Positions 39,403 through 61,733 are shown, counted from the first letter of the stretch. The stretch: DNA of 64,000 nucleotides from Candidatus Aldehydirespiratoraceae bacterium (GCA_965198315.1 OZ240616.1:391096-455095), one strand, 5' to 3'. Program-made: numbers and translations. Notes: generated from the letters alone by a model not told the origin.

Positions 39403-39418
39403 ATCGTCACGCTCCGCA

Positions 39419-40615: not shown

Positions 40616-40626
40616 GCGTCACCAGT

Positions 40627-41541: not shown

Positions 41542-41573
41542 ACTCACAGGAGGCGCAAACCAAGCCGCGCCGC

Positions 41574-44449: not shown

Positions 44450-44459
44450 GCGATGGCCC

Positions 44460-45284
44460 TCATGCGATGGCCAATGGGCGGACCGGGGCTCCGGTAGCGC
44501 CGTGGATGTTCAGATGGGACAGCACGAACACGAACTCATAGACCCCGGCGGCGGCCAGACCATCCAGTTCCAGGGCCTCGATGATGTTGATGCCCTGCTC
44601 CACCAGCAGGACCCGGTGAGCCGGCAACAGGGCATGTCCTTGTCCAGCGGGGATGCACTCGAAGGCCAGCGTGTCGGCCCCGACGAGGGTTGCGCCCTGT
44701 TCAGCCAACCATTGCGCACCCTCCTCCCCGACTCCCGGCACTCCAGTGTCTTTACCGCCATAACGGTCGGGGTCGTCGAAGTAGGCCCCCCAGCCGCTGC
44801 GTATCAGTACCGCGTCACCCGAGCGCAGAGGGGTGCCTTGACGTGTCGCCGCGCCTTTGAGTTCGGCCACGCTGATCTCGTGGCCGCCATCGCACACCTC
44901 CTCCTCGAGCAGCCCGGCTATGTCCAGCAGCACGCCGCGACCGACGAACGGTGGCAGTTCTTGAATCCCCAACACCTCGAAGTTGCCGCCTGACTGAGCC
45001 TCTTGCGCATCTATGCCGCCATGCAGCAAGCCTTGGTGGCTGACATGGGCCAGCGCGTCCACATGTGTCCCGACGTGGCAACCGGTTGTCAGCAGGTCAG
45101 CCGCCGCCGAACCACCGTCGGCTCGCACCCGTTCGCCGTGGCGCCGGTCCAGACAGTGGTTGAACATCGGGTGGTTCGGTGATTGCGCCATACCGTTTCG
45201 CATCAGGCGACCGAGATCGTAGACGGTGGCTTCAGCGAGCACGCCCAGAAGCTCCGTGACTGGCCCTGAGATATTTCTGCTCAT
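44460..45284 (-). CDS. cyclase-family protein (kynurenine-formamidase-like)
   Basis: TTGCHVGTHVDALAHV (HxGTHxDxxxH) motif. Confidence 0.85.
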   Translation of the reverse strand: MSRNISGPVTELLGVLAEATVYDLGRLMRNGMAQSPNHPMFNHCLDRRHGERVRADGGSAAADLLTTGCHVGTHVDALAHVSHQGLLHGGIDAQEAQSGGNFEVLGIQELPPFVGRGVLLDIAGLLEEEVCDGGHEISVAELKGAATRQGTPLRSGDAVLIRSGWGAYFDDPDRYGGKDTGVPGVGEEGAQWLAEQGATLVGADTLAFECIPAGQGHALLPAHRVLLVEQGINIIEALELDGLAAAGVYEFVFVLSHLNIHGATGAPVRPLAIA

Positions 45285-46471
45285 GCGATCACTCCCCGGT
45301 CTCGCAGGTCGGCCAGTCGTTCGGCGCTCATCCCGGTATCTGTCAATACCTGATCGGTGTCTGCGCCGAGGGTTCGCCCAGAGTGTCGGACCTCGCCGGG
45401 TGTGTCCGACAAACCGAACAGGACGTTCTGCATCAGTAGCGGACCCAAGTCGGGGTCGTCGACCGACACCACGGCTCCGCGGGCCTGCACCTGCGGATCT
45501 GCGACGTACTGCTCCACGTCGTACACCGGAGCGAGCGCCACGTCGGCACCGGCGAACGCTTCAACGACTTCGGCGAGCGGGCGTTCGCCGATCCATGCGG
45601 CCATGGCATCGTCGATCTCATCGCTGTGGGCGGCCCGGCCGGCACCGGTGGCGAACCACGGTTCACCCACCAGGTCGCCCCGACCGATCAATTCCATTGT
45701 GCGGCGAGCTACCGCGTCGGCGCTGCTCGACACAGCCACCCAGCGGTTGTCGGCGGTGAGGTAGGTGTTGCGGGGGGCGTTGTTGAGCGAGCGGTTCCCA
45801 CTCCGCTGAGTGATATGGCCGGTCTGGTCCCAGGTGATGACATGGGGGCCGAGCGCGGTGGCGAGCGGTTCGAGGATCGACAGGTCCACTACTTGGCCCT
45901 GTCCAGTGGCGTGCCGGTGGTGCAGTGCCATCATCACCGCGGCGACCCCGCTGATGCCGGCGAAGCTGTCGGCGAGTCCGAAGGGGGGCAGGGTCGGGGG
46001 CCGGTCGGCTTCACCGGTCATGTGGGCAAAGCCGCTCATGGCCTCGATCAAGGTCCCGAAGGCCGGCCGACGGGCATACGGGCCGGTCTGGCCGAATCCG
46101 CTGACCCGGCAGAGAATCAGCCCGGGGTTGCGCTCCGACAGTACTTCGGGGCCCAGGCCCCAGCGCTCGAGGGTGCCGGGCCGGAAGTTCTCGACAACTA
46201 CATCGGCGGAGGCTGCGAGGTCCAGGAACACTTCGGCTCCGTCGGGATCGCTCAGGTTCAAACCCACGCAGCGTTTGTTGCGTGCGACGATCTTCCACCA
46301 GAGTCCCTGACCATCCTTCTGCGCACCGTGACCCCGCATGCTGTCGCCTGTCTGGGGATGCTCTATCTTGATCACATCCGCGCCGAAATCGGCCATGATC
46401 TGGCCTATCACCGGCCCCGCGATCACGGTGGAAGCGTCAATGACGCGCAGGTCGGCCAGAGGACCCTTCAT
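45281..46471 (-). CDS. family III CoA-transferase (CaiB/BaiF), second copy
   Basis: MKGPLADLRVIDASTVIAGPVIGQIMADFGADVIKIE and VENFRPG. ATG 46471 preferred over the longer track ORF. Confidence 0.9.
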   Translation of the reverse strand: MKGPLADLRVIDASTVIAGPVIGQIMADFGADVIKIEHPQTGDSMRGHGAQKDGQGLWWKIVARNKRCVGLNLSDPDGAEVFLDLAASADVVVENFRPGTLERWGLGPEVLSERNPGLILCRVSGFGQTGPYARRPAFGTLIEAMSGFAHMTGEADRPPTLPPFGLADSFAGISGVAAVMMALHHRHATGQGQVVDLSILEPLATALGPHVITWDQTGHITQRSGNRSLNNAPRNTYLTADNRWVAVSSSADAVARRTMELIGRGDLVGEPWFATGAGRAAHSDEIDDAMAAWIGERPLAEVVEAFAGADVALAPVYDVEQYVADPQVQARGAVVSVDDPDLGPLLMQNVLFGLSDTPGEVRHSGRTLGADTDQVLTDTGMSAERLADLRDRGVIA

Positions 46472-46611
46472 GCGGAACGTCGTTTCTCCCAGGGGAACAT
46501 CGGCCCTAGTGTTCCGCACAATCGAGTCTGTTGGCAACCGTTCCCAGCGAAGATAGGCCTTACCAGCGAACATCCGCTAGCCTCATTCCCCTGAGCGGAA
46601 CAGCAGAACCA

Positions 46612-47394
46612 ATGGACTCAGTCACTGGCACAAGTCGCAGCGTGGCCGCTATTGAGCGGGCTGCTGATGTGCTGTTCCTGTTCGCCAGAGCACAGAGCAC
46701 TCTGGGCGTCACCGAGATTTCCAAGGAACTCGGCGTGTCCAAGGCGGTCGTGCATCGAATACTCACCTCGTTGCGTGAACGGAACCTGTTGACCATCGAC
46801 CCGGAGACCCGGCGCTACGCGCTTGGGCCGGCTGTGTTGGAACTGGCCACTGCTTACCGCGATCAGCTCGATATTCGGACCCTGGCCCTCGACGAGATGC
46901 GCAGACTCAGCGCCGCGACCGACGAAACCGCGACTCTGTCGGTACGCCACGGCAACAAACGTGTTTACGTCGCCCAGATAACGCCTCCCCGAGAGGTGAA
47001 GATGACCGTGCCCATCGGTGGGTCGTTTCCGCTGCACGCCGGCGCTTCGTCCAAAGCGTTCCTGGCTTGGCTCAGCGAAGGCGAGATTGACCTCTATCTG
47101 GCCGAGAATCCACTCGACGCCATAACTGGGGCCACCATCATCACTGTCGACGAACTTCGTGCCGAACTGGGCCGCATTCGTCAGCAGGGTTTCGCCGTCT
47201 CTCTCGGTGAACGTCAACACGACGCCGGTTCGGTCGCGGCTCCGATCCTCGACGACAACCAAGCGCCAGTCGCGGTGATCAGCGTCAGTGGACCGATTGA
47301 ACGCTTCCGCGACAAAATCGCCAGTTCGGCGGCTGCGGTGGTGGAGGTCACCCGAGCGCTGTCCACAAAGCTCGGAGCCCGCCCTGGTGGCTGA
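46612..47394 (+). CDS. IclR-family transcriptional regulator
   Basis: SVAAIERAADVLFLFA...LGVTEISKELGVSKAVVHRILTSL HTH followed by an IclR effector domain. Confidence 0.9.
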   Translation: MDSVTGTSRSVAAIERAADVLFLFARAQSTLGVTEISKELGVSKAVVHRILTSLRERNLLTIDPETRRYALGPAVLELATAYRDQLDIRTLALDEMRRLSAATDETATLSVRHGNKRVYVAQITPPREVKMTVPIGGSFPLHAGASSKAFLAWLSEGEIDLYLAENPLDAITGATIITVDELRAELGRIRQQGFAVSLGERQHDAGSVAAPILDDNQAPVAVISVSGPIERFRDKIASSAAAVVEVTRALSTKLGARPGG

Positions 47395-49171
47395 ACTGCC
47401 TCAGGTGACAGACCACTTGACGGTGGCGGCGGTGCAGTTCGCCACGGGCAGCGATCTCGAGGAGAACCTCGACACCTGCCTACGAATGCTCGATGCGACC
47501 GCCGCGCAGGGGGCTGATCTGGTGGTGTTTCCGGAGTTCTGCAACCACATCTCGGTCTACGACGATGCCGCGCACTGCCGGGCTGTTGCCGTAGCACTGG
47601 ATGGTCCCTGGATGCGGGCTTTTGCTCGGCGGGTTGCTGAGCACGGGATTTATGCCGCAATGGCTGTGACGATCCCCCGAGCTGACGGGCGGGTGACCGT
47701 GACCGGCCTGCTGTTCGACCCCGACGGGGAACTGCTGGCCACCGCGGACAAACAGATGCTCATGGGGAATGAAAGGTCCTTCCTTAGTACCGGTTCCGGG
47801 GCGAACCCGGTGGCCGATACTCGCTTCGGCCCCGTCGGCCTGTATTCCTGCATGGACGGCGTGACCTTCGAGATACCCCGCACGTTGGCGGTGCGCGGTG
47901 CTCGGTTGTTGCTCAACAACCTCAACTCGTTCGCCCGTGACGAGGCGGCGCTGCATATTCCGGTGCGAGCCGCCGAGAACGGCGTGTTCGTGGTGGCTGC
48001 CAACAAGGTCGGTCCTTTGTTGCCCCCTGACCGCGTGGACGCTTTCAGCGAGGCGCTGGGCGTGGGTGCCGAGACCTTGAACGGCGCCGGTGAAAGCCAG
48101 ATCGTGGGTCCCGACGGCACCGTGTTGGCTATCGGCCCCCTAACCGGCGAGGCGGTGGTCATCGCCGAGGTTGACCTGTCCGAGGCCGACCCGACCCGGC
48201 TGGTGGGCCGACGGCCCGGTGTGTACGCCCCGCTGGCGCAAGCCCCTACGGCACGACCGGCAACCGGTTTGGCCGCTGAGGTGGTCGTTGCCTGCGTGCC
48301 TGGAAGCCAAGCGAAACCAGAACTACTCGACGAGACCTTCGCTTCTTCGGCGGCGCTGGTGATCTTGCCGGAGCTGACACCGGTGCCCGCCACCATTCCC
48401 GAGGGCGTCTTGGTGGTGACCACAGCCCTGCGAGAAGACCGAGACGGGCACGGTCAACACGAACACGGTCAACACGGCGACGGTCAACACAGGGACCAGA
48501 TTTGGTCGTCGCAAGCCCTACAAACAAATCGAGACAGCGACCGTCAACCCGGCGACAGTGAACACAGTCACGGTCAACACGGTGACACTCAACACGGCGA
48601 CACTCAACACAGCCACATTCAACACAGGGGCCAGGTTTGGTCGGCGCAAGGCTTGGTCCACGAACAACCGCAGATCCACCGCAGTGATCGCTACCCGCAA
48701 GTCACCGACTTGGGCAGTGGCGTGGACTTGTATCGAACGCCGTTCGGTGATCTGGCCGTCTTGGTAGCCGACGACCACCGCTACCCCGAAGCCGTGCGAC
48801 TAGCAGCAGTGGCCGGCGCCCACATCGTTGTGGTGTGTTGGCAGCCTGAACACCCCTGGGAGTGGGATCTGGCTCTGGTGGAGCGTGCAGCCGAGAACCG
48901 AGTCAGCCTCGCTGCGTGCGCGCCGATGGGTTCAGCCGGCGCTGCGATAATGCTCGACCCACCGGCCGATTCGCTCTGGAATCCTCAGCGGTCAAGCGCC
49001 TATGACGGCACCATCAACACTCCAACAACCATTCGGGCCAAGCCGGATCAAGGGCTGCTTATTGCGACCTTGCACCCAGGCCGAGCCCTCCACCGGGAGG
49101 TCTCAAAAGACACCGATCTCGTGGGTGGCCGACCGTGGCAGGCCTCGCAGATACTCAACGCGGTGCCCTAG
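47387..49171 (+). CDS. tandem carbon-nitrogen hydrolase (nitrilase-superfamily) protein with His/Gln/Gly-rich insertion
   Basis: First domain has VAAVQF...VVFPEF (catalytic Glu) and GLYSCMD (Cys). The second domain looks degenerate (LPEL; LVADDHRYPE lacks the Cys). Start is GTG 47387, or GTG 47405 / TTG 47417. Confidence 0.8.
   Translation: MAELPQVTDHLTVAAVQFATGSDLEENLDTCLRMLDATAAQGADLVVFPEFCNHISVYDDAAHCRAVAVALDGPWMRAFARRVAEHGIYAAMAVTIPRADGRVTVTGLLFDPDGELLATADKQMLMGNERSFLSTGSGANPVADTRFGPVGLYSCMDGVTFEIPRTLAVRGARLLLNNLNSFARDEAALHIPVRAAENGVFVVAANKVGPLLPPDRVDAFSEALGVGAETLNGAGESQIVGPDGTVLAIGPLTGEAVVIAEVDLSEADPTRLVGRRPGVYAPLAQAPTARPATGLAAEVVVACVPGSQAKPELLDETFASSAALVILPELTPVPATIPEGVLVVTTALREDRDGHGQHEHGQHGDGQHRDQIWSSQALQTNRDSDRQPGDSEHSHGQHGDTQHGDTQHSHIQHRGQVWSAQGLVHEQPQIHRSDRYPQVTDLGSGVDLYRTPFGDLAVLVADDHRYPEAVRLAAVAGAHIVVVCWQPEHPWEWDLALVERAAENRVSLAACAPMGSAGAAIMLDPPADSLWNPQRSSAYDGTINTPTTIRAKPDQGLLIATLHPGRALHREVSKDTDLVGGRPWQASQILNAVP
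48441..48655. repeat. in-frame tandem repeats encoding (H-G-Q-H / G-D-x-Q-H)n inside the CN-hydrolase gene
   Basis: cacggtcaacac units recur. Two larger modules each end in cagggRccagRtttggtcgKcgcaagSc (RDQIWSSQAL / RGQVWSAQGL). Confidence 0.9.
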
Positions 49172-49970
49172 CAAGAACCGCTCGGGCTTGACGCACGACT
49201 GCGGTGTCCACGAACTTGCCGTCCACGATCAGTGCTGCACGGCCCTCGGCAGCCGCTGCTTCGTAGGCGGCCACGATTTTCTCAGCTTGAGCTATGGCAT
49301 TGGTTGAGGGGGTGAAGGCTGCGTTGACTGCCTCCACTTGCTTGGGGTGGATAACCGAGCGACCGCCAAAGCCGTGGCGGCGCAGCGATTCGCTGGAGGC
49401 GACTAGCGCTTCGTCGTCGTCAAGGTCGGTGGGTACGGGTCCGCACGGGGACTCAAGCCCAGAACCGACCGATGCGACCACCACGCGGGTGCGGATCGGC
49501 CACATTTCGAGGGCGTCGGCGGACGGTTCCATACACATGTCTGCAGCGAGGTCTGCTTCGCCCAAGGCCAGGCGCACCACCGCGGGCATCGCCGCGATCT
49601 CGTAGATGTCGGCCACGCCGACAGCCGACTCGATGAGGGCCATCACGGGGCTGCCCGCGAAGTCGACGGCGCAAACCGCGGTATCGGCTTTGGGCACGAC
49701 CACACCCGCGAATTCCACTCCGTCGGCGACCAAGGAACGCACCATCGCAGCATCGTCGTCGAGCAAGTCGGGGCGGCTGTTGACCCGCACCCAGGCGGCT
49801 GCCCCGGAGTTGGCTCGCAGCCAGTCCGCGACTGCGTCTCGGGCGGTTGCCTTGGCTGTTTCGGCAACCGCGTCTTCGAGATCGCAGATGATGGCGTCAG
49901 CTCCCGAACCGAGCGCCTTGTCGAAGCGGTCGGAGCGGTCACCCGGGACGTAGAGAGTGGTGCGGGTCAT
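49155..49970 (-). CDS. HpcH/HpaI aldolase / citrate-lyase beta-subunit-like (CitE) acyl-CoA lyase
   Basis: LYVPGDRSDRFDKALGSGADAIICDLEDAV N-terminal motif. Confidence 0.85.
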   Translation of the reverse strand: MTRTTLYVPGDRSDRFDKALGSGADAIICDLEDAVAETAKATARDAVADWLRANSGAAAWVRVNSRPDLLDDDAAMVRSLVADGVEFAGVVVPKADTAVCAVDFAGSPVMALIESAVGVADIYEIAAMPAVVRLALGEADLAADMCMEPSADALEMWPIRTRVVVASVGSGLESPCGPVPTDLDDDEALVASSESLRRHGFGGRSVIHPKQVEAVNAAFTPSTNAIAQAEKIVAAYEAAAAEGRAALIVDGKFVDTAVVRQARAVLARAPR

Positions 49971-50104
49971 TGTCGTGGCAGTTCCCTGATGTTGTTGGCA
50001 GTGTGGTTTGTTGACACTCGTCGCTGCTCAGCCCTACTGTCAGGCCGAATGAAACGTTGTTCCGCTTAACGGAACAACTTTCCTCTGACGATACCGGAGT
50101 ACCT

Positions 50105-50917
50105 ATGCGCGAGACGTTGAAGGGCGTCCAAGACATCTTCGACGAGCGAGGTCCGACAGATGCTACGGCAACGTTCAACCGCCTGTGGTCCATCACCGGT
50201 GAACTCATGGCCAAGATCGAAGCCCGGTTCGAGTTGACCCGAGACCCGAGCACCGACGATTTGGAGTCCTACCGAGGCGAAACTGAGCACCCCTCAGGAC
50301 GGCTTGCCGCCTATGCCGGACCCGAAATCGACTGGCTGGTCCACTCCTGGATCGGCAACCCGCCGCTGGGCTTCACCAACATGCACGTAACCGCCTGGCT
50401 CGGCCCGCAAATAAACGTTCCCCATCTCGGTATCGCCTGGGGAACCCTGCCCGACCTGTGGTTCTACATCGACTTCAATGCCCGTTCCGATCTCATGCTC
50501 GACACCGAAGCGCTGGACAAATACTTCGAACCGCTCAACGAAGAGTTCTTGGAGTTGCGCGCCGATGAGGGGCTGGCACCGTTCACCTCCAGGGCTTTGT
50601 ATATCCGCCAAGCGCTGAGCGACGTGGCCATCTGTTTCACCACCCCCAACCGCACCCACGACAAAGCACGGCTTGACCAGGTGAGCGAACTGGCCCATCG
50701 GCGGGTCGACCAATGGCTGCGCTGGGTTGATGAAGCCGAACCGGTGCCGCAAGCACGTCGCGAAAAACTTACCGCAGACGATCTGGCCCGGCGACGCAAC
50801 ATCGCCGAACGAGACCCCGCGAACGTGATGGCGGAACGGTTCTTCGGTCAGGAGATGACCGATCGCCTGGTTCGAGCTCTCTGGGGTGGCGACCGGCTAC
50901 TGCTGAGACCCAGTTAG
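50105..50917 (+). CDS. red-chlorophyll-catabolite-reductase-like (FDBR/RCCR family) protein 1
   Basis: ggag RBS before ATG 50105. Segments IDWLVHSWIG, VPHLGIAWG...YIDFNARSDLMLDTEALDKYFE, APFTSRALYIRQALS and ERFFGQEMTDRLVRAL line up with the Arabidopsis RCCR (ACD2) segments IDFVIGSWI, APNFVVEL...LDLPHRKDLVLNPDYLKEYYQ, NPYVSPSLFVRSAFS and PRMFGEEVSSRVVHAI as I remember them. Confidence 0.65.
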   Translation: MRETLKGVQDIFDERGPTDATATFNRLWSITGELMAKIEARFELTRDPSTDDLESYRGETEHPSGRLAAYAGPEIDWLVHSWIGNPPLGFTNMHVTAWLGPQINVPHLGIAWGTLPDLWFYIDFNARSDLMLDTEALDKYFEPLNEEFLELRADEGLAPFTSRALYIRQALSDVAICFTTPNRTHDKARLDQVSELAHRRVDQWLRWVDEAEPVPQARREKLTADDLARRRNIAERDPANVMAERFFGQEMTDRLVRALWGGDRLLLRPS

Positions 50918-50927
50918 GACGTATCGA

Positions 50928-52118
50928 ATGTTCATCAAGAACCACTGGTATGCAGTCGAGTTCGGTGCCGATGTCGTCGGCGAGCCTGTACTGGCCCGGG
51001 TACATGGCCACGACCTGGTGCTGTGGCGCAGTCCCGACGGCACCGTCAACGCCCAATCCGACCTGTGCGTCCACCGTGGCGGTTCACTTGCCGGAGGCAA
51101 GGTGGTGGGCAACTGCGTGCGGTGCCCTTACCACGGGTGGCGCTACGACACCGGCGGTGCGTGTGTGGAGATCCCCGCAAATCGGCAAGGTCTGCCCATC
51201 CCCAAAAAGGCCCGGATCGACACCTATCCCTGTATCGAGCGCTACGGGTTCGTATGGGTGTTCCTGGGCGACCTGCCTACAGAGCAGCGACCTCCGGTGC
51301 CTGTACTCGACGGCCTCGAAGAACACACCGAAGCCAAAGCCGAGGGTTACCGCGCCATATTCGGCGAGTTCACCTGGAACGCCAACTACGACCGGGTGTT
51401 GGAGAACGCAGTCGACATCGCCCACACCCCGTTCGTGCACTCCGGATCGTTCGGCAACGCTGAGCAACCTGAAATCGGTGACTTTGAACTCGAAGAGGAC
51501 CACCACGACGGCTATTTGACTTCGGTGACGGCCACGGTCGACCTTGAGCCACCACGCCCATCAGGGCTGTGGAAGTTCATCTCCAAGAAAGACCGCCCCC
51601 CGGTCAGCACAACTACCGGGTTCTATCCCCCCAATGTGTCGCTCTTGATCGTGCGCCTGCCAATGGGCGAGATTCGCATCTTCACCGCGGCGGTCCCCCG
51701 AGATGAGCACCTCACCGTCTCGAAGTTCGCCATGTTGCGCACGTTCTTCACAGGCGGTTGGGCCGACAAGAACTCCATGCAACGCACAATCAAGATTTTT
51801 CTGGAGGACCAGCCCACCGTGGAGGGGCAGCGGCCCGAGTTGTTGCCGTTCGATTTGTCGGCCGAACTGCATGTCAAGTCCGATTCGATCCAGTTGGCCT
51901 ACCGTCGCTGGCGCCAAGAGCAGCTCGACAAAGGCTGGGGACTTGAAGTGCTCTCGGACGAATCGGCCATGCGGGCCGCTGCGGTGATTCCCTCACCGGC
52001 ACGATCGGGCGATCCAGAACTGGCTAACGCCTGGGTGTTCCCCACCGTCACTGAGGCTGTAGCGCAACGGCCTGTCGGCGAGACCGCGCAACGGTCCGTC
52101 GGCGAGGCCGAGCGATGA
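50928..52118 (+). CDS. Rieske [2Fe-2S] non-heme-iron oxygenase, PaO/VanA-type single-component alpha subunit
   Basis: CVHRGGSL...CPYHGW Rieske ligands and ENAVDIAHTPFVH mononuclear-iron motif. The C-terminal FLEDQPTVEGQ and SDSIQLAYRRW resemble the PaO/Tic55/VanA lineage. Confidence 0.85.
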   Translation: MFIKNHWYAVEFGADVVGEPVLARVHGHDLVLWRSPDGTVNAQSDLCVHRGGSLAGGKVVGNCVRCPYHGWRYDTGGACVEIPANRQGLPIPKKARIDTYPCIERYGFVWVFLGDLPTEQRPPVPVLDGLEEHTEAKAEGYRAIFGEFTWNANYDRVLENAVDIAHTPFVHSGSFGNAEQPEIGDFELEEDHHDGYLTSVTATVDLEPPRPSGLWKFISKKDRPPVSTTTGFYPPNVSLLIVRLPMGEIRIFTAAVPRDEHLTVSKFAMLRTFFTGGWADKNSMQRTIKIFLEDQPTVEGQRPELLPFDLSAELHVKSDSIQLAYRRWRQEQLDKGWGLEVLSDESAMRAAAVIPSPARSGDPELANAWVFPTVTEAVAQRPVGETAQRSVGEAER

Positions 52119-52834
52119 GCCTGTCGGCTGATCTGTGCCTTGGGGCTGTCGAGGCGATTGAGGCTCGCTTGGGGTTGGCGGAGACCGTGAACACACCGCT
52201 GGTTTCGGCGCTGGACGGTTCGCCGGTTGGTGCCCACCGGGTGTTGGCGCGTGACGGGCTGGCCGCGTTGGTGTACGTGGGTATGACTGTGGAGGCATTC
52301 GGACTCGACAGCCACATGTGTTTCGCGTTCACGGATGCTCACAGTCCGGTCCCTCATTTCACAGTGGATTCGGTGTTGGCCGGTCCCCACTATGCGTTCC
52401 ACCTTGATCTGATCCCCCGCCTGGACCCGGGTGCGAACCTGGCCTACATCGACCATTGCTACGGCCCGCTCACCGAAACCCATGACACGGTCGTGGAGAT
52501 GGAGGGGCTGACACCCGCACATTTGTCACCGCGGCAATGGCAGTTGATGTCGGCCTGGATGCTGGCCCATCGCGCCGACGAAGACGGATTTCGGGGGGTG
52601 TTCGATGCGGTGTCCGCATATCGCGACCACTGGCTCAAGTTGGTGGTCGAGGGTGTGCCTGACGATGCCCTCGGTGGCGCGACCCCAGACGATCTGGATC
52701 GGCGTGACTTCCGCAACCGCGAGGCAATCTTCAGCCCCGAGGTGGACCCCGTCTGGGCTCGGGTCGACCAACTGCTCGGCCCAGAAACCAGCGCCAATAT
52801 CCAAACCAGTCTCAAAACCGCAGCACGCAGCTAG
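52115..52834 (+). CDS. red-chlorophyll-catabolite-reductase-like (FDBR/RCCR family) protein 2
   Basis: The ATGA overlaps the oxygenase gene. SPVPHFTVDSVL....FHLDLIPRLDPGANLAYIDHCY parallels RCCR APNFVVELI....LILDLPHRKDLVLNPDYLKEYY. The C-terminal DLDRRDFRNREAIF...VWARVDQLLG parallels ELERRDKSFRRKSI...FPRMFGEE. Confidence 0.6.
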   Translation: MSLSADLCLGAVEAIEARLGLAETVNTPLVSALDGSPVGAHRVLARDGLAALVYVGMTVEAFGLDSHMCFAFTDAHSPVPHFTVDSVLAGPHYAFHLDLIPRLDPGANLAYIDHCYGPLTETHDTVVEMEGLTPAHLSPRQWQLMSAWMLAHRADEDGFRGVFDAVSAYRDHWLKLVVEGVPDDALGGATPDDLDRRDFRNREAIFSPEVDPVWARVDQLLGPETSANIQTSLKTAARS

Positions 52835-52861
52835 AACAAGCACCGAGAACGGAGATCACCT

Positions 52862-53800
52862 ATGAGCGAAACCGAAGCCTCCGAGTGGCAGCAGCGCATC
52901 ACCGGTGAATGGTACGGCCTGCCGTCGGTTTTCGATGCCGACGGAAGCCACACAGGGTTCAACAAGGTCAGTCGGGCCAGCGTGTTCGCCGACGGCAAGG
53001 TCACCTATTGGATGCAGTGCAACTTCATGAACACCGGACCGTTGCGCAACCGCTTCGAGATCCGCGATTTCGAGTTCGGCGTGGACGATCAGGGCAACGA
53101 CCGCATCTATCATGGCCCCGACTTCTACGGGGCAGGCCACCCCTACGGTTCGCTGGTGGATTCGCACTATTACGCACCGGGTTGGCGGGCCGATCTCAAC
53201 ACCATGAACCAGATCCTCCCCGACGGAGTGACTCAGGTGTACTCGTCTCTGCTGTATGAAGGACCGACCATCTTTGCGGTGTTCAACGGGGTGTATCTCA
53301 ACGCCCACGACTACGACACCAATGCCGACACCAAAGAATGGATCGACACCCACATCGAGGCCGAACGCGAGCTGGCCTCATGGCCCCACACCGTGCCCGA
53401 CCGGATCGGCGGTGAATGGACCGGGCAATGCGAGGTGTTCGGGGCCGATCAACAACGTCGGGGCACAGTGGATGTGCGCTTGCGCAACGACCCCATCGAC
53501 TTGGTGTGCGCCAACTGCACTCTGGACATGTCCGGGACCATCGACCGGTCTCTGAGCTACATCCGCACCCGCTCTGGTGGCAACCGTTACACCTACGACG
53601 GCCCCGATTTCTGGGGCAACGCCATCGCTTACGGTCGGGCGCTGTACACGACCCAGCATCATGCGAGCGAGGCGTTCAAGATCAAAGGGCGGGAGTTCAT
53701 CCTTGACCGCAACTACACGCTGGCTGTGGCCTGGAAGCTCTACTCCGGCGACCGCATGACCGACATCGTGTTCGGCCCCCTCAACTGGTCATCCGACTAA
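52862..53800 (+). CDS. two-module GxWxG beta-barrel-like protein (DUF3598/nitrobindin/lipocalin-like, tentative)
   Basis: Two internal modules each open with the signature ITGEWYGLPSVFDADG / IGGEWTGQCEVFGADQ. 27 nt after RCCR-like 2. Confidence 0.55.
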   Translation: MSETEASEWQQRITGEWYGLPSVFDADGSHTGFNKVSRASVFADGKVTYWMQCNFMNTGPLRNRFEIRDFEFGVDDQGNDRIYHGPDFYGAGHPYGSLVDSHYYAPGWRADLNTMNQILPDGVTQVYSSLLYEGPTIFAVFNGVYLNAHDYDTNADTKEWIDTHIEAERELASWPHTVPDRIGGEWTGQCEVFGADQQRRGTVDVRLRNDPIDLVCANCTLDMSGTIDRSLSYIRTRSGGNRYTYDGPDFWGNAIAYGRALYTTQHHASEAFKIKGREFILDRNYTLAVAWKLYSGDRMTDIVFGPLNWSSD

Positions 53801-53879: not shown

Positions 53880-54247
53880 GGTCTCCTCTGGTTGAGCCGC
53901 TGACGAACCACCGGGAACCATCATCGGTCCTACCCAACCAAGCAGGACTCAAACCACCGAGAACCATCATCGGTCTGCTCTGGTTGAGCCGCTGACGAAC
54001 CACCGGGAACCATCATCGGTCCTACCCAACCAAGCAGGACTCAAACCACCGAGAACCATCATCGGTCTCCTCTGGCTGGGCCACTGACAAACCACCCGGA
54101 ACCATCATCGGTCCTACCCAACCAAGCAGGACTCAAACCACCGAGAACCATCATCGGTCTCCTCCGGCTGGGCCACTGACAAACCACCCGGAACCACCAT
54201 CGGTCCTACCCAACCAAGCAGGACTCAAACCACCGAGAACCATCATC
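53880..54247. repeat. 4 x 92-bp tandem repeat (each unit is two 46-bp half-units)
   Basis: Units start at 53880, 53972, 54064 and 54156. Each half-unit ends in aaccaccgRgaaccatcatc. The period is not a multiple of 3. The array lies downstream of the DUF222-HNH gene. Confidence 0.95.
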
Positions 54248-54339
54248 GACCCCTCCCGACCGACCCGCCGCCTCACCGCGGCCGCGCCAGTCGACGTGCC
54301 TCAACCTCTCCTCTTTTGCTAGATGGCTGGGTGTCACGG

Positions 54340-55503
54340 TTAGGGGCCGTTTGGGGGGTTGTTGGGGTTGATGATTTTGTAGCCGGTGTTGGTTTTGATG
54401 ACGATGTAGCCGCGGTCGTGGATGTTGTGGTGGCAGTGTGGGCAGGCGAGACACATTTTGTCGATGTCGGTTAGTCCGCCGTCTTCCCAAGGCACGATGT
54501 GATGGATTTCGCAGCGTTCAGGACCTGCGGTGCAGTCTTTGCCTGTGCAGTGCCGGTCGCGGGCGATGATGGCTTTGATTTGGGCTTCGGTGGGGAGCCT
54601 ACGGTCGCGTCCCACCCAAATGGGTTGGCCTTTGCCGTCAAACACAACGCCGGTCACTGTGGCCATGCACATCAAGCGTTCCAGCACTGTTTGGGGTAAG
54701 GCTTCACCACCGACGATCTCAGCGACACAGGTGGGGTTGTCGCCTCGTAGACGTTCAACGTCGGCTACTGCGATCAGTTGCATCCTTGTGCTGCCCGGCC
54801 CGCAACGGCCCACATCGGTCAACAACGCCACGAACGCGTCGGCTAAGCGTTGTGGTGTTGTGCGAACATCGTCGGGGGTGCCGTCGCGGCCGCCGTCGTC
54901 ACGCCACATGCGGTCGTATTCAACATTGATTGCTTTGACCGCTTGTTGATAGCTAGTCGGATCGAGTTCTGCTAACAGCACACCCATACCTTCTTCGTTC
55001 ACCCAATGCTTGAACAACCGGTTGCGGCGTTGCTGTTGATACAACTCGGCGCCGTCGTCGGGTTGGTTGCGGTTCACCCACCGCCGCGACTGTTCAGCGA
55101 ACGCATCAACAGACGATGTCTCAGCAAGCTTCGACAACTCGTCGTCTACTTGCCCAGACGAAGTCTTGGCCGCAGCCCCAACCGCCACCGCGGCGTGTTC
55201 GACAGTGATGGCACCACTAGCCAACGCTTCGGCCAGCTTCGGCATCTCCGCGAGTCCAGCAGCAGTCTTCGCGACCGAATTAGCGGCACGAGTGGACATG
55301 CGCCCCGCCTCACGCAGCACCGTCTTGGAGTTCACACCACCATCATCAAGACCCTCGATCTCGGTTGCGCAGCGTGTCTGCAACGCACCCAACGCGGCGA
55401 TCACCCGCCCAGCACCCGCAACCAGACCCTCCAACTCGCCGCGGCACAGCCCAGAAACCACCACCCCCCGGGTCTGTTTGATCATCGAATCGAACATGAC
55501 CAC
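54340..55503 (-). CDS. DUF222 + HNH endonuclease protein (REP13E12-type actinobacterial repeat gene)
   Basis: N-terminal DUF222-like helical region. C-terminal ARDRHCTGKDC....CEIHHIVPWEDGG.TD..N....C..CH..IH HNH motif. Confidence 0.85.
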   Translation of the reverse strand: MVMFDSMIKQTRGVVVSGLCRGELEGLVAGAGRVIAALGALQTRCATEIEGLDDGGVNSKTVLREAGRMSTRAANSVAKTAAGLAEMPKLAEALASGAITVEHAAVAVGAAAKTSSGQVDDELSKLAETSSVDAFAEQSRRWVNRNQPDDGAELYQQQRRNRLFKHWVNEEGMGVLLAELDPTSYQQAVKAINVEYDRMWRDDGGRDGTPDDVRTTPQRLADAFVALLTDVGRCGPGSTRMQLIAVADVERLRGDNPTCVAEIVGGEALPQTVLERLMCMATVTGVVFDGKGQPIWVGRDRRLPTEAQIKAIIARDRHCTGKDCTAGPERCEIHHIVPWEDGGLTDIDKMCLACPHCHHNIHDRGYIVIKTNTGYKIINPNNPPNGP

Positions 55504-55800: not shown

Positions 55801-56883
55801 TCAAGTGCGGGTTTTGAGGGTGGCGAGGTCGGCTCGCAGTGTGCGGTAGATCTCTCGTGCGAGGTAGCGCTTGAGGCAGCGGATGGCTTCTTTCTTGGTT
55901 TTGCCTTCGGCGACGCGGCGGTCGAGGTAGCTGCGGGTTCGGTCGCAGTAGCGGAGCCGGACGATGACGATCATGTGCAGTGCCCGGTTGGCGGCGCGGT
56001 TGCCGGCGAAGTTGAGCCGGTGGCGGCTGGTGCGCCCGCTGGATGCGGGCACCGGAGCGGTTGCGCACAGGTGGGCGAAGGACGCTTCGGAGCCGAGCCG
56101 GTCGATGTTCTCGCCGGCTGCGACGAGCAGCGCCGCGGTGTGGTGGGTGCCGCATCCCAGACGCGACACTGTCGTGGGCGCTGCGGCGGCGACGAGCCGG
56201 TCGAGTTCGCGTTCGAGTTCGTCGGCTTCGGCGCCGAGCCGGGCGATGCGGCGCCCCAGGCTGCGCAGTGCTGCTTTGGCGGCCTGGGCGGGATCGGCGA
56301 GCCGGGCGGGGTCGGGCCGCAGCCGGGCGCACACCGCGGCTTTGCCCTCGAGGGTGCGGCGGGTGTCGAGCTGTTCGCGCAGCGCGGCGGGGGCGGTGAC
56401 GAGCAGGTCGCCGAGCTGGCACAGCGCAGCGGAGCGGGCTTTGACAGCGCTGCTGCGGACGACGCTGAGCTGGCGGATCGACTCGACCACGCCGGTCGTG
56501 TCCTTGGCGGCTGCGGTCGCTTCGCCCGAGAGCACCTTGCGGGCGGCGGCCTCGGCGTCGATGGCGTCGTTCTTGCCGCGGCGCGAACGCAGATGCGCGT
56601 GCGGCTGGTTGACCTCGATCACCCGGCAGCCCTGCTCGGTCAGCGACCGGGCCAGGGCAGCTCCGTAGGACCCGGTCGATTCCACGCCGACCGCGGCGAT
56701 CGGGCCGAACGACAAGAGCCATTCATGAGTCGAGCGGTAGCCAGCGCCGGTCGCGGGGAACGACTCAGTGCCCAGCACCCGACCCAAGGGGTCGAGCGCG
56801 GCGGCTACGTGGAAGTCGGTGTGGCAGTCAATCCCGCCGATCACCGCCTGTGGTGGTGGTTCTGGCATCATGTTGTCCTTCAT
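55801..56883 (-). CDS. IS110-family transposase
   Basis: IGGIDCHTDFHVAA (DEDD N-terminal domain), VGVESTGSYG, NDAIDAEAAA and C-terminal LKRYLAREIY. ATG 56883 chosen. Confidence 0.9.
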   Translation of the reverse strand: MKDNMMPEPPPQAVIGGIDCHTDFHVAAALDPLGRVLGTESFPATGAGYRSTHEWLLSFGPIAAVGVESTGSYGAALARSLTEQGCRVIEVNQPHAHLRSRRGKNDAIDAEAAARKVLSGEATAAAKDTTGVVESIRQLSVVRSSAVKARSAALCQLGDLLVTAPAALREQLDTRRTLEGKAAVCARLRPDPARLADPAQAAKAALRSLGRRIARLGAEADELERELDRLVAAAAPTTVSRLGCGTHHTAALLVAAGENIDRLGSEASFAHLCATAPVPASSGRTSRHRLNFAGNRAANRALHMIVIVRLRYCDRTRSYLDRRVAEGKTKKEAIRCLKRYLAREIYRTLRADLATLKTRT

Positions 56884-57199
56884 CTCGGAGCGGCTCGCGT
56901 GCCGGGACGGGACGGACATAACAGTGATGAGGCATCTGTCAGCGCAGGTTCCTATGAGGTCACGTCGCTCGTTCCGGACCGGCCGCAGCTGGCAAGTCCA
57001 AGGAGCAGACCGCCGACATCGACGAGTCCCAGGCAAGGCACCCACAACACGCAGGGCCAGTTTTGCGGCAAGTCAGACGCCGACGGCCCGCTCCCCGCAC
57101 ACATCTTCACTGTTTTGCGCAGGCTCCAAGGATTGGAGCAAGCATGGGAGCTATGGACACACAAGCGAACACGGCGGGGACGTCTCGTCGGTATTCGGC

Positions 57200-57492
57200 T
57201 GAGCAGAAAAAGCACGCGGGTACGTGCCGACAACACAATCACCTGCTGGGGCAACAACACCTTGGGGCAGACTGGTGCGCCTGAGGGGAAGTTCCAAACT
57301 GTTTCCGCCGGCTCGGGGCATTCGTGCGGGTTGCGTGCCGACAACACACTCACCTGCTGGGGCAACTACTTCGATGGGCGGACTGATGTGCCTGAGGGTG
57401 CGTTCAAGACTGTATCCAACAGCGAGGAGTACTCGTGTGGGGTACGTGCCGACAACACAATCACCTGCTGGGGCTACATACGGATAGGTTGA
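57200..57492 (+). pseudogene. RCC1_2-like repeat gene fragment (about 2.5 blades)
   Basis: RADNTITCWGNNTLGQTGAPEGKFQTVSAGSGHSCGLRADNTLTCWGNYFDGRTDVPEGAFKTVSNSEEYSCGVRADNTITCWGY, with 111-nt periodicity and near-identical 33-nt segments at 57220 and 57442. No credible start. Abuts the IS110. Confidence 0.5.
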
Positions 57493-57620: not shown

Positions 57621-57682
57621 GTTTGAACTAGGACTTGACAAACCTTTGTTGTTATTGCAAACTAGTTTGTGTTACAAACTAG
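57621..57682. promoter_or_regulatory. candidate promoter/operator upstream of the membrane-protein/wHTH operon
   Basis: ttgaca at 57635-57640. Perfect 12-bp palindrome caaactagtttg at 57658-57669, with related half-sites gtttgaactag (57621-57631) and acaaactag (57674-57682). Confidence 0.4.
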
Positions 57683-57696
57683 ATGGAGGCGAGCAA

Positions 57697-58323
57697 ATGC
57701 AGACATTCGATGACAGCTCAGATCCCCTGACCGCCGAGGAGAGTTGGCAGGCCATCCACACCACCATGGACGATGCCCGGAGCTCGATGTACCTGGCCGG
57801 AAGCACGAAGATCATGCTGTTGTGGGGCGTGATCGTCTCAGTGGGATGGCTCTCCCAGTACGCCATCGAGACGCTCGCCACCGAGTTCGTCGAGGACAGG
57901 CCAGAGGTCTCAGGCTTGTTGTGGGCTGTCCTCGGCCCGGTGGGTGGGGTGAGTAGCGGCTTCATCGGTCACCGAGCGAGCCAGAACATTGCGGCAAGCG
58001 AAACGGCCCGCCGGGCAGGGATCCGGGTCTGCCTTTTCTGGGTCACCCTCGTGGTGGCCTCGTTCCTCCTCATTGGCGCGGCAGGGTTGTGGAACGATGC
58101 CGAGCACCTCCCGCGATTCTGGGTGGGCATGGCGGCACTCGGATACGTCCTGTTCGGCATCATGCACCGTCCCATGATCGCGGTGTTGGGTCTGGGCTTC
58201 GCAGCCGCGTTCTACATCCCGGAATACCTCCTCGGCGACGTGGCACTGGCGGTGTCCGGATCGGCGACGCTGGCCATGACGGTTGCCGGCTTCGTGTGGG
58301 TCCACAAGACCGGCGAATGGTGA
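57697..58323 (+). CDS. integral membrane protein (about 5 TM), unknown function
   Basis: ggagg RBS before ATG 57697. Hydrophobic helices throughout. Stop overlaps the regulator start. Confidence 0.65.
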   Translation: MQTFDDSSDPLTAEESWQAIHTTMDDARSSMYLAGSTKIMLLWGVIVSVGWLSQYAIETLATEFVEDRPEVSGLLWAVLGPVGGVSSGFIGHRASQNIAASETARRAGIRVCLFWVTLVVASFLLIGAAGLWNDAEHLPRFWVGMAALGYVLFGIMHRPMIAVLGLGFAAAFYIPEYLLGDVALAVSGSATLAMTVAGFVWVHKTGEW

Positions 58324-58727
58324 ACGACGAAGCCTCCATGACCAGTCAGCCGTCCCCGTCCACGGACGCAACTCCCGTGTCGACCGGCGAGGAGATCATC
58401 CTCGATGAGACCATCCATCAGCCGACCCGGCTGCGCATCATGACGCTGCTGGTCTCGGTTCTCGAGGCGGACCGCCTGGCCTACGGATTCATCCAGCAGA
58501 CCCTGCGGCTGACCGGCGGCAACCTGACGGTCCATCTGCGCAAGCTCGAGGCCGCGGGGCTGGTGACCATCACCAAGGAGTTCCAAGGCGCCAAACCGCG
58601 CACCTGGGTGCAGGCGACCACACAGGGACGACGGGCCTTCGCCGAGTACCTGTCGAACCTGGAGAGGGCGCTCGGGGTCAGTGTCCGCGGGGTGCCTGCC
58701 GACGATGGACAAGCAGGCAGCCAGTGA
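58317..58727 (+). CDS. winged-helix transcriptional regulator (ArsR/MarR-like HTH)
   Basis: HQPTRLRIMTLL........GFIQQTLRLTGGNLTVHLRKLEAAGLVTI...F.G.KPRTWV..T..GR.AF. Confidence 0.75.
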   Translation: MVNDEASMTSQPSPSTDATPVSTGEEIILDETIHQPTRLRIMTLLVSVLEADRLAYGFIQQTLRLTGGNLTVHLRKLEAAGLVTITKEFQGAKPRTWVQATTQGRRAFAEYLSNLERALGVSVRGVPADDGQAGSQ

Positions 58728-58808: not shown

Positions 58809-59498
58809 TCAACCGATGGTCACTGTTACTGAACGGGTGTCGTCGTCGATGGTCTCAGCAAGGGCGATAGCGGTTGCTCCGATCGGGTCGTTCATGGTCC
58901 ATAGGCGGCGGTGTTGTGACGGCGCTGGCCAACAGGCCGCAACCAGCAGCGGGCCGACTGCACGGCGCAGTGGCCATTCATCGCCGTCTTCGGGCAGCGG
59001 GGCCGACAGGTCCAAGCGAGGCTCGATCCCGGACGCTTCCGGGACGGCTACTCCCACGATGTCGGCCACTGACCGTCCGGCTAGTGAGAAGAACCCGCCG
59101 GTGAGTTGGCGGTCGGGGGTGACAAGCACGCTGTAGGACTCGAACTCGTATCCGAATCGGGGCCACAGGCCCTGTCCGGTCATTGCCCCGGGCTGCCATT
59201 GTGTCGCGGTGCCCACCACATCGGGGCCCAGGTAGCGGCGCTGGTCACCGACCACTTCGAGATCGAATACCCATTCGCCTGCGAACGCGGCCATGGCGTG
59301 GCCGTCGAGTGCGAGCGACGGTTCGCATTGTTGGGTCACCCGCAGCCGCGCTTCGTCGATCTGTTCGACGCAACGGCGCTGGGCGACGGTTCCTCGGTAA
59401 GTACCGTCGGGGTCGTACACGTATTCGGTTACCCGCCAGGCGCCGCCGAAGCTGTCATCGCTGTTCACACTGTCGTTGCTCATGTCATCGCTGCTCAT
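58809..59498 (-). CDS. GxWxG-type barrel-like protein (paralogue family)
   Basis: FGGAWRVTEYVYDPDGTYRG opening signature. 4-nt overlap with the upstream gene. Family tentative. Confidence 0.5.
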   Translation of the reverse strand: MSSDDMSNDSVNSDDSFGGAWRVTEYVYDPDGTYRGTVAQRRCVEQIDEARLRVTQQCEPSLALDGHAMAAFAGEWVFDLEVVGDQRRYLGPDVVGTATQWQPGAMTGQGLWPRFGYEFESYSVLVTPDRQLTGGFFSLAGRSVADIVGVAVPEASGIEPRLDLSAPLPEDGDEWPLRRAVGPLLVAACWPAPSQHRRLWTMNDPIGATAIALAETIDDDTRSVTVTIG

Positions 59499-61664: not shown

Positions 61665-61733
61665 GGCGCAATCGTAGAGTGCCCGGCCCGACAATGAAAC
61701 CGCGTTCCACTGAGCGGAACCATAAGCTGAAAT

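Follow-up and report, generated by a model that had tools for sequence, protein, structure and literature searches.

A conserved bacterial four-gene unit that places a Rieske oxygenase between two RCCR-like genes, and its possible part in tetrapyrrole breakdown

Background

Chlorophyll is broken down in large amounts in nature, and plants only detoxify it, to colourless linear tetrapyrroles. To our knowledge, no route from the tetrapyrrole macrocycle to central metabolism has been described in any organism, and our literature searches found no description of a pathway that consumes colourless linear tetrapyrroles, or heme-derived bilins, in soil or sea. Here we examine a 64,000-nt stretch of DNA from Candidatus Aldehydirespiratoraceae bacterium (GCA_965198315.1 OZ240616.1:391096-455095; hereafter the window, with positions counted from its first letter), in which four adjacent genes, g1 to g4, encode an RCCR-family protein, a Rieske oxygenase, a second RCCR-like protein and a predicted double beta-barrel protein. 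The closest described system is the plant pair of pheophorbide a oxygenase (PAO) and red chlorophyll catabolite reductase (RCCR), the latter a ferredoxin-dependent enzyme that reduces RCC, the red chlorophyll catabolite, at its C20/C1 double bond. The bacterial locus likewise pairs a Rieske oxygenase with RCCR-fold proteins, and the tight coupling seen here (a stop/start overlap and natural fusions) mirrors the interaction and channelling reported for PAO and RCCR, which are described in the introduction of the preprint ‘Chlorophyll a degradation in Prokaryotes’ (Aliyu et al., bioRxiv 10.64898/2026.03.19.712979). Unlike plants, however, which have one RCCR, this bacterium has two diverged putative reductase paralogues, its oxygenase has a VanA_C-type catalytic domain and lacks the PaO domain, and its proteins are soluble, operon-encoded and part of a catabolic cluster with an IclR gene.

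The ferredoxin-dependent bilin reductases (FDBRs) have the same fold, an alpha-beta-alpha sandwich, and two of them, PebA and PebB, act in sequence on one tetrapyrrole in phycobilin synthesis. Here, too, two paralogues are encoded together, and by analogy they might act sequentially on one tetrapyrrole. In contrast to FDBRs, g1 and g3 remain below the FDBR Pfam threshold, and they lie beside a Rieske oxygenase rather than a heme oxygenase, in a catabolic context rather than one of chromophore biosynthesis. The best solved relatives of g2 belong to the SxtT/GxtA/SxtDIOX, NdmA/B, DdmC and VanA group (E 2e-37 to 5e-23), which likewise combine Rieske and VanA_C domains without a beta subunit, yet have no RCCR-fold partners and act on small non-tetrapyrrole substrates. 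The predicted two-barrel architecture of g4 is shared by a DUF3598 protein (2o62) and by Arabidopsis BFA1 (5yvf), an ATP-synthase assembly factor; we know of no function for DUF3598. Neither has detectable sequence similarity to g4, whose type, unlike theirs, occurs in three copies in one catabolic cluster.

Prokaryotic RCCR homologues have already been reported. Aliyu et al. count 1,193 RCCR structural homologues in prokaryotic genomes, assign ~33% of their ‘complete RCCR-type’ genomes to the Actinomycetota (with Micromonosporaceae and Streptosporangiaceae prominent) and find the best matches in Shewanella acanthi within ~11 kb; an S. acanthi double mutant in both hydrolase genes (PPH- and CLH-type) stays green, its decolouration being lost (10.64898/2026.03.19.712979). 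Their ‘SH-CCE’ genotype resembles our locus in that RCCR homologues occur together with PAO-like and hydrolase homologues in Actinomycetota and other phyla. However, it is a per-genome presence/absence score, the experiment deletes only hydrolases, and no second RCCR paralogue, barrel proteins, fusions, regulator or downstream module are described; the words operon, synteny, neighbour and gene cluster are absent from the main text. Rockwell et al. 2023 (PMC10151467) place ‘RCCRs and related sequences’, bacterial ones included, as the outgroup of the FDBRs, and phototroph-feeding amoebae induce PAO-like genes (Uzuka et al. 2019, PMC6898599). An initial annotation of the window had treated RCCR as a plant-lineage branch of the bilin reductases, a view that is out of date given hundreds of bacterial PF06405 proteins and the homologues counted in the preprint. 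Our searches of the literature for a described tetrapyrrole or maleimide catabolic gene cluster returned nothing relevant. Two papers that surfaced were set aside as unrelated: one on riboflavin/lumichrome catabolism, which merely cites a PAO paper and whose Rieske enzyme is an alpha/beta dioxygenase, and one on a Streptomyces atratus bilin, which concerns a different, truncated Fe-S protein. We found no earlier description of this operon architecture, of the families of g3 and g4, of the fusions or of a link to downstream assimilation.

A compact four-gene unit conserved in two phyla

The core of the locus consists of four head-to-tail open reading frames (ORFs) on the + strand, spanning 50105-53800:

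50105-50917, + strand: g1, 270 aa, RCCR-family protein
50928-52118, + strand: g2, 396 aa, Rieske non-heme iron oxygenase, alpha-only (VanA/SxtT/NdmA-like)
52115-52834, + strand: g3, 239 aa, diverged RCCR-like paralogue, without a Pfam family
52862-53800, + strand: g4, 312 aa, predicted tandem double beta-barrel protein (DUF3598/BFA1-like fold)

The TAG stop of g1 is followed by 10 nt containing AGGA and then by the ATG of g2; g2 and g3 share an ATGA stop/start overlap of 4 nt at 52115-52118; and 27 nt containing GGAGA lie between the TAG of g3 and the ATG of g4. These spacings, read directly from the sequence, are exactly those of the initial annotation. The automatic ORF list opens g1 at TTG 50057, but ATG 50105 is the better start, since all g1 homologues begin M-x-E-T-L-K at the matching position and a GGAG lies 7 nt upstream. 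A pattern scan revealed no convincing terminator between the four genes, and two weak terminator-like matches inside g2 at a frequency expected by chance; no Rfam family was found in 49-59 kb.

Scanning one genome for each species turned up relatives of g1 in 366 genomes. The nearest, at 97% and 96%, are metagenome-assembled genomes (MAGs) named Candidatus Aldehydirespiratoraceae (Acidimicrobiales), others are MAGs named Ca. Poriferisocius or Poriferisodalis, names that presumably denote association with sponges, and relatives at ~50-57% occur in Streptosporangium, Actinomadura, Micromonospora, Actinoplanes, Streptomyces, Nitriliruptoria and Anaerolineae. When the window's proteins were searched against 82 related loci with tblastn, all four genes came up together in 72, from Actinomycetota and Chloroflexota, an association far beyond chance. 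Of 73 loci, 42 share the 4-nt overlap of g2 and g3 (ATGA or GTGA), among them those of Micromonospora, Actinoplanes and Actinomadura, and the g3/g4 spacing is also tight in related loci, at -8, -4 or ~10 nt. The genes g1 to g4 are, in short, a compact unit conserved in two phyla, and the proposal of a single transcription unit with a coupled g2/g3 junction gains from the compact layout, the recurrent overlap and the joint occurrence of the four genes.

Two RCCR-like proteins flank the oxygenase

The Pfam model PF06405 (RCC_reductase) recognises g1 with 54 bits, above its gathering threshold of 24.9, whereas PF05996 (Fe_bilin_red) gives only 18 bits for g1 against a threshold of 31, and none for g3; the NCBIfam PebA/PebB models match with only ~21 bits where cut-offs exceed 260. 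As a single sequence g1 matches the Arabidopsis RCCR (AtRCCR) chains of 3agb in a PDB search (E 7e-9), and a profile of its family (21 sequences) matches AtRCCR at E 1.3e-16, aligning over residues 28-256, followed by Guillardia PebB (5.7e-8) and PebA (0.11). A total of 493 g1 homologues were found. By these matches, g1 is a true RCCR-family protein, with a predicted RCCR/FDBR fold.

The second protein is more diverged. Neither as a single sequence nor as a profile did g3 match anything in Pfam, NCBIfam or the PDB sequences, and since sequence-only searches were equally silent on g4, both were resolved by profile-profile comparison and predicted structures. BLASTP aligns g3 with g1 at 26% identity over 231 residues (E 6e-6). 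When the g1 and g3 families were compared with hhalign, the probability was 97% (E 1.2e-10, 215 columns), rising to 97.7% (E 1.6e-12) with larger, locus-derived alignments. An AlphaFold2 model of g3, built with 22 homologues, reached pLDDT 94.2 and pTM 0.92, and Foldseek placed AtRCCR chains at ranks 1-9 (E 2e-11 to 7e-10, TM 0.70-0.75), followed by PebA, PebB, PcyA, HY2 and PebS, with coproporphyrinogen oxidase (CPOX) far weaker. All significant matches with a named function are thus tetrapyrrole enzymes (RCCR, FDBRs and, weakly, CPOX); two chains of plastid Ycf2/Orf2971-FtsHi motor complexes are also significant. Because BLASTP, hhalign and the structural matches agree, we regard g3 as a diverged RCCR-like paralogue of g1 with a predicted RCCR/FDBR fold, and as an unannotated RCCR-like family that is tied to a function by its context. 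The initial suggestion that both genes flanking the oxygenase are RCCR-like therefore stands, through Pfam and PDB sequence matches for g1 and through profile-profile comparison and predicted structure for g3.

Pocket residues of g1 and g3

To compare binding pockets, the chain numbering of 3agb was linked to AtRCCR numbering through the F218V site (offset 43). We take AtRCCR Glu154 and Asp291 to be the acidic residues of the pocket, and the catalytic roles attached to the aligned positions follow published work on RCCRs and FDBRs. Opposite Glu154, g3 has the invariant D85 and g1 has Ala111 or a gap, and Asp291 corresponds to the invariant D237 of g1 in a HMMER alignment (in a MAFFT alignment it lies 2 residues off), with D211 as its g3 counterpart. 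At AtRCCR Asn150, both paralogues have a His, within a Pro-His pair (g1 H107, g3 H81). Profile alignments further equate g1 D123 (‘yiDy’) with the Asp of the D-x-Q-P strand in PebB (‘aiDmqP’) and PebA (‘vlDfqP’), and the C-terminal ‘erDPan’ of g1 (D237) with PebB ‘ekDPar’ and PebA ‘erDPah’; the g3 equivalents of the central-strand Asp and the Asp-Pro motif are D98 and D211-P212. Catalytic residue numbers of PcyA, PebA and PebS could not be reconciled with the chain numbering, and the correspondence with FDBRs is therefore claimed at the level of motifs alone. Pocket residues are at least 97% conserved in family alignments of 81 g1 and 74 g3 sequences, and D65, H67, H81, D85, H96, D98 and D211 are invariant in g3. 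As judged from these alignments, the acidic pocket appears largely preserved, more fully in g3, with D85 and D211, than in g1, which has D237 at Asp291 or 2 residues away and no acidic residue at Glu154.

The Rieske oxygenase and its fusion to g3-type domains

A Pfam scan at E<=0.1 found Rieske and VanA_C domains in g2, together with a weak KshA_C match, and no PaO domain (which we take to be PF08417). Among solved structures it comes closest to SxtDIOX/SxtT (2e-37), NdmA, DdmC, phthalate-type oxygenases, carbazole dioxygenase and KshA. Across 72 orthologues, conservation is at least 97% for the Rieske ligands C47/H49/C66/H69 and for the iron motif D163-x2-H166-x4-H171; such CxH...CxxH and DxxHxxxxH motifs are common to all Rieske oxygenases and so do not discriminate in favour of the PAO family. 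Uzuka et al. 2019 (PMC6898599) define PAO-like proteins by the Pfam PAO-like domain, and in the absence of a PaO domain g2 is not counted in that family. By domain content, then, g2 is an intact alpha3-type (alpha-only) Rieske oxygenase outside the PAO family, and the initial view of it as a counterpart of PAO does not survive as a statement about family, its closest solved relatives being SxtT/SxtDIOX, NdmA and DdmC.

A search with the g3-family profile of 1.84 billion representative proteins returned 283 clusters with E<=1e-3, of which 196 had E<=1e-10; several are multidomain. Two proteins from metagenomic bacteria, P0404 (642 aa) and P0510 (675 aa), from loci L087 and L088, consist of Rieske, VanA_C and g3 domains in one chain. 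Over 228 residues, P0510 aligns C-terminally with g3 at 35% identity (E 2e-39), and its N-terminal part matches g2 at E 5e-12; the g3 domain of P0404 also gives a weak Fe_bilin_red match. The fused Rieske-g3 gene stands alone, outside catabolic clusters, with BREX genes adjoining and a SOUL heme-binding gene ~10 kb away. Of the independent evidence, this fusion most strongly supports a direct functional coupling of the ATGA-overlapping pair g2/g3, as suggested by the domain arrangement, and it lends weight to the earlier idea of PAO-RCCR-like coupling, for which the functional analogy appears reasonable. In further proteins (P0408 of locus L089, P0399 and P0476) a g3-like domain is joined to Rossmann/NmrA domains of the NAD(P)-binding type, once in a bacterium and twice in transcriptome-derived sequences of the heterotrophic protists Diphylleia rotans and Rigifila ramosa, the latter species' protein with additional ankyrin and FYVE domains. 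A further candidate, the 1189-aa ‘RCCR + g3’ protein P0469, most likely arose when a read-through was miscalled as a gene on a contig with a frameshift, and was excluded from the evidence.

A 24-bp repeat of 2.8 copies (52062-52128) encodes the repetitive C-terminal tail of g2 (…AQRPVGETAQRSVGEAER) and reaches into the start codon of g3. The length of this tail differs between orthologues, and the 4-nt overlap is retained.

The double-barrel proteins

No family was found for g4 at the sequence level in Pfam, NCBIfam or phmmer and profile searches of the PDB, or in a Pfam scan of 23 family members. Its AlphaFold2 model (pLDDT 91.5) shows two tandem beta-barrels with a linking helix at 155-170, in agreement with the initial annotation of a barrel gene after the second RCCR-like gene. 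Foldseek matched the model to BFA1 (5yvf, 1.5e-8) and the DUF3598 protein Npun_R4044 (2o62, 1.8e-7), with TM ~0.55-0.69, and matched single barrels to the bilin lyase CpeS and to lipocalins. According to this model, g4 belongs with the DUF3598/BFA1 double barrels at the level of fold only. Two further barrel paralogues are encoded downstream:

58809-59498, - strand: u229, barrel paralogue, 27% identity to u300 (BLASTP E 6e-9)
59495-60397, - strand: u300, barrel paralogue, 24% identity to g4 (BLASTP E 7e-14)

In relatives, u229 and u300 directly adjoin g4. We regard g4, u300 and u229 as members of a new double-barrel family, represented three times in the cluster, that is tied to a function by context.

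The flanking catabolic module and its candidate operators

Enzymes of catabolic type surround the core, as annotated with Pfam and NCBIfam, and three downstream genes are conserved partners of it by synteny:

38755-49970: upstream catabolic module
60394-61425, - strand: DUF3891 protein
61734-62696, + strand: alpha/beta hydrolase
62734-63540, + strand: SDR (short-chain dehydrogenase/reductase)

The upstream module comprises an isochorismatase-type amidohydrolase (RutB/BiuH-like), two family-III CoA transferases (nearest in NCBIfam to succinate-glutarate and succinyl-CoA:mesaconate transferases), an HMG-CoA lyase whose NCBIfam match is above cut-off, a cyclic amidohydrolase of the allantoinase/hydantoinase/dihydropyrimidinase type, MmgE/PrpD, an arylformamidase-like cyclase, an IclR regulator, a CN-hydrolase and a CitE/RipC-like lyase, for which the nearest NCBIfam model is the itaconate-degradation lyase RipC/Ccl. 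The CN-hydrolase, a nitrilase-superfamily amidase (627 aa, 47288-49171), is the least conserved cluster member among relatives. The alpha/beta hydrolase is always near the core and gives weak chlorophyllase/PETase-type matches, and DUF3891, a constant member of the cluster, has no PDB sequence match.

The order of the upstream module is conserved in Acidimicrobiales, and the same families stand beside the core in other orders and in Anaerolineae. In Acidimicrobiales the upstream order is CoA-transferase, HMG-CoA lyase, cyclic amidohydrolase, MmgE/PrpD, cyclase, CoA-transferase, IclR, CN-hydrolase and CitE, and the core g1 g2 g3 g4 is followed by u229, u300, DUF3891, alpha/beta hydrolase and SDR. 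Loci from Streptosporangiales, Micromonosporales and Streptomyces read CN-hydrolase, g1, alpha/beta hydrolase, g2, g3, g4, SDR, a 225-aa protein and Amdase; the hydrolase stands between g1 and g2, and the SDR after g4, in Streptosporangiales, Micromonospora and Actinoplanes alike. Upstream, these Streptosporangiales-type loci have a two-component flavin monooxygenase, aldehyde dehydrogenases, an FAD hydroxylase and sometimes a PEP-mutase/ICL enzyme. In Anaerolineae the order is CN-hydrolase, CoA-transferase, GntR, DUF3891, two u300-like genes, g1, hydrolase, g2, g3, g4, SDR, Amdase, Aconitase_C, CoA-transferase and amidohydrolase. Other lineages thus add Amdase, Aconitase_C and PEP-mutase/ICL to the repertoire. 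Taken together, the flanking enzymes would form a toolkit for opening cyclic amide or imide rings, removing nitrogen and cleaving CoA esters of methyl-branched C5-C7 dicarboxylates, and such fragments might be expected from beta-substituted pyrrole rings, by way of maleimide, maleamate and dialkylmaleate/citramalate-type acids.

Palindromic sites lie in three divergent promoter regions of the cluster:

50056-50078: perfect palindrome GTTGTTCCG-CTTAA-CGGAACAAC, 27 nt upstream of the g1 ATG, in the divergent promoter region of CitE and g1
50059-50075: GTTCCG-N5-CGGAAC, 0 mismatches, inside the perfect palindrome
61704-61720: GTTCCG-N5-CGGAAC-like, 1 mismatch, in the divergent region of DUF3891 and the hydrolase
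46585-46601: GTTCCG-N5-CGGAAC-like, 2 mismatches, in the divergent region of the CoA-transferase and IclR

Many orthologous loci in Acidimicrobiales carry the core of the perfect palindrome, TGTTCCG-N5-CGGAACA, at about -47, with differing flanks. At <=2 mismatches the motif occurs 6 times in the window where 5.7 are expected, no more than chance, and the case for an operator consequently rests on placement and on the sites with 0 or 1 mismatch. The palindrome at 50056-50078 also scores as terminator-like on both strands, a reading that was rejected because the site lies upstream of g1 in a divergent promoter, its half-sites are conserved and similar sites stand in two other promoters. These palindromes may be operators of the adjacent IclR regulator, in which case the core operon would be part of one regulon.

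Possible substrates and wider meaning

Our tentative reading is that g1 to g4 provide the first, oxidative and reductive, reactions of a conserved catabolic cluster of bacteria, apparently linked to IclR, for a tetrapyrrole, most likely one derived from chlorophyll (pheophorbide or an opened phyllobilin). This is the reading that we favour, although it is somewhat more prone to be wrong than right; what we infer within it are the substrate, the reaction order, the ferredoxin dependence and the catalytic roles of g1, g3 and g4. A chlorophyll-derived substrate is favoured because g1 and g3 each match RCCR better than the FDBRs, the cluster always includes an ester-type hydrolase, and the genotype is tied to chlorophyll a in the preprint. 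On this reading g2, fed by a housekeeping ferredoxin or reductase, would cut or hydroxylate the pigment in an oxygen-dependent reaction, and its reactive product would be handed directly to g3, whose synthesis the ATGA overlap would couple to that of g2 (in some organisms the two are fused). The two RCCR-like proteins would then each reduce a different double bond of the linear tetrapyrrole, in resemblance to PAO-RCCR and to PebA/PebB, while the lipocalin-like g4 with u300 and u229 might bind or process hydrophobic, photoreactive intermediates. Finally, the alpha/beta hydrolase, the SDR, the cyclic-amide and amide hydrolases, the CoA transferases and the citramalyl-/HMG-CoA-type lyases could convert pyrrole-derived pieces into central metabolites; the make-up of the cluster fits a breakdown of tetrapyrrole into branched dicarboxylates.

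Several observations weigh against this proposal. Opposite AtRCCR Glu154, the pocket of g1 has Ala111 or a gap. The PaO domain, the hallmark of PAO, CAO, Tic55 and PTC52, is missing from g2, whose nearest characterised relatives use saxitoxin, methylxanthines, dicamba, vanillate and sterols, none of them tetrapyrroles. The chlorophyllase-type matches of the alpha/beta hydrolase are below threshold, no version of the cluster that we examined contains a gene for a ferredoxin, a reductase, a Mg-dechelatase (SGR) or a heme oxygenase, and the link from the downstream module to pyrrole fragments is drawn from family names. Dependence on ferredoxin is also not to be assumed, because Rossmann domains that bind NAD(P) are joined to some of the g3-like domains.

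The same machinery might instead act on a bilin derived from heme or phycobilins (biliverdin, phycocyanobilin, phycoerythrobilin or a bilirubin-like compound), with the Rieske enzyme opening or hydroxylating a meso bridge of a tetrapyrrole that is linear from the start, and g1 and g3 serving as true bilin reductases. We think this unlikely: the best matches of g1 and g3 are to RCCR and not to FDBRs, there is no heme oxygenase in or near the cluster, and the conserved ester-type hydrolase would have no obvious role on free bilins, even though the g1 profile also reaches PebB at 5.7e-8 with FDBR-type Asp motifs kept, the g3 domain of P0404 weakly resembles Fe_bilin_red, a SOUL gene lies near the fused Rieske-g3 gene, the cluster is devoid of a Mg-dechelatase, and cyanobacterial bilins and heme abound in the habitats of sponge and soil. 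A different doubt concerns whether a tetrapyrrole is involved at all. The affinities of g2, the resemblance of the amide hydrolases, formamidase-like cyclase, CoA transferases and lyases to N-heterocycle and itaconate/mesaconate pathways, and the two-component flavin monooxygenase, FAD_binding_3 hydroxylase and aldehyde dehydrogenases of the Streptosporangiales clusters would all suit a non-tetrapyrrole N-heterocycle or aromatic compound (pyrrole, indole, pyridine-type or a dialkylmaleic natural product), for which RCCR folds had been recruited to other chemistry or to binding. We nevertheless judge this rather unlikely, since both RCCR-fold paralogues persist across phyla with their pocket Asp and His residues conserved, the significant solved matches of the fold handle tetrapyrroles (except the two Ycf2/Orf2971-FtsHi chains, for which no function is named), and an independent preprint ties prokaryotic RCCR homologues to loss of chlorophyll a (10.64898/2026.03.19.712979).

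A mechanistic variant, which we consider somewhat unlikely, would make g3 a non-catalytic acceptor or chaperone subunit of the oxygenase and leave reduction to g1 and/or the NAD(P)H-dependent SDR. Translational coupling and fusion to the oxygenase would be natural for such a subunit, the SDR is a constant neighbour, other g3-like domains are joined to NmrA/Rossmann NAD(P)-binding domains, and no curated RCCR or FDBR sequence model matches g3; but the invariant D65, H67, H81, D85, H96, D98 and D211 align with catalytic positions of RCCRs and FDBRs, which is unexpected for a passive carrier.

To return to a chlorophyll-derived substrate and its possible reach, the operon could be the entry to a complete bacterial pathway for tetrapyrrole mineralisation, with Rieske opening, two reductions, handling by barrel proteins, maleimide- or maleamate-like fragments, and assimilation through a citramalyl-/HMG-CoA-type lyase. 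This larger proposal is doubtful as a whole, though a real possibility. Were it true, g3 would found an unannotated family that is physically coupled to an oxygenase, g4 would represent a new double-barrel family handling the intermediates, and a broader role in detoxification would be suggested by the occurrence of g3-domain relatives in protists that eat algae. The operon offers a concrete, widely conserved and testable gene set, whose carriers include culturable Micromonospora, Actinoplanes, Streptosporangium, Actinomadura, Streptomyces and Thermomonospora. That the RCCR branch of the bilin-reductase superfamily extends widely among bacteria has a bearing on the evolution of plant chlorophyll breakdown, and in sponge symbionts the pathway could serve the use or detoxification of pigments from filtered or symbiotic phototrophs.

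An inserted segment and minor features

In the window, g4 is separated from u229 by a segment of ~53.8-58.8 kb, which contains the following features:

53880-54248, non-coding: tandem repeat with a 92-bp unit, four copies, 96% matches and an inner 46-bp period
54340-55503, - strand: DUF222/HNH endonuclease gene
55801-57045, - strand: IS110-family transposase
57646-58323, + strand: membrane ORF
58089-58727, + strand: HTH_34 regulator

Most relatives lack this segment and have u229 directly after g4 (e.g. L006, L009-L012 and L086), and it is therefore regarded as an insertion. The 97%-identical MAG loci L004 and L005, which have no u229 within 7 kb, seem to share it. At the insertion's edge, the 92-bp array comes directly behind the g4 stop and ahead of the DUF222/HNH gene.

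Two genes of the flanking module have unusual lengths or inserts. The DUF3891 ORF is 343 aa here, where relatives (L086) have a 272-aa gene and a separate 154-aa gene upstream, so that the ORF may be over-extended. In the CN-hydrolase, 15/30-bp tandem repeats at 48449-48627 encode a His/Gln/Asp-rich low-complexity insert (…HGQHEHGQHGDGQH…HSHGQHGDTQHGDTQH…) between the protein halves. Further upstream, an RCC1-repeat protein of 681 aa is encoded at 32561-34606 (+ strand), and a short RCC1-like repeat stretch (…ADNTITCWG…) at ~57100-57492 (+ strand), beside the IS110 gene, is possibly a gene fragment left by the insertion.

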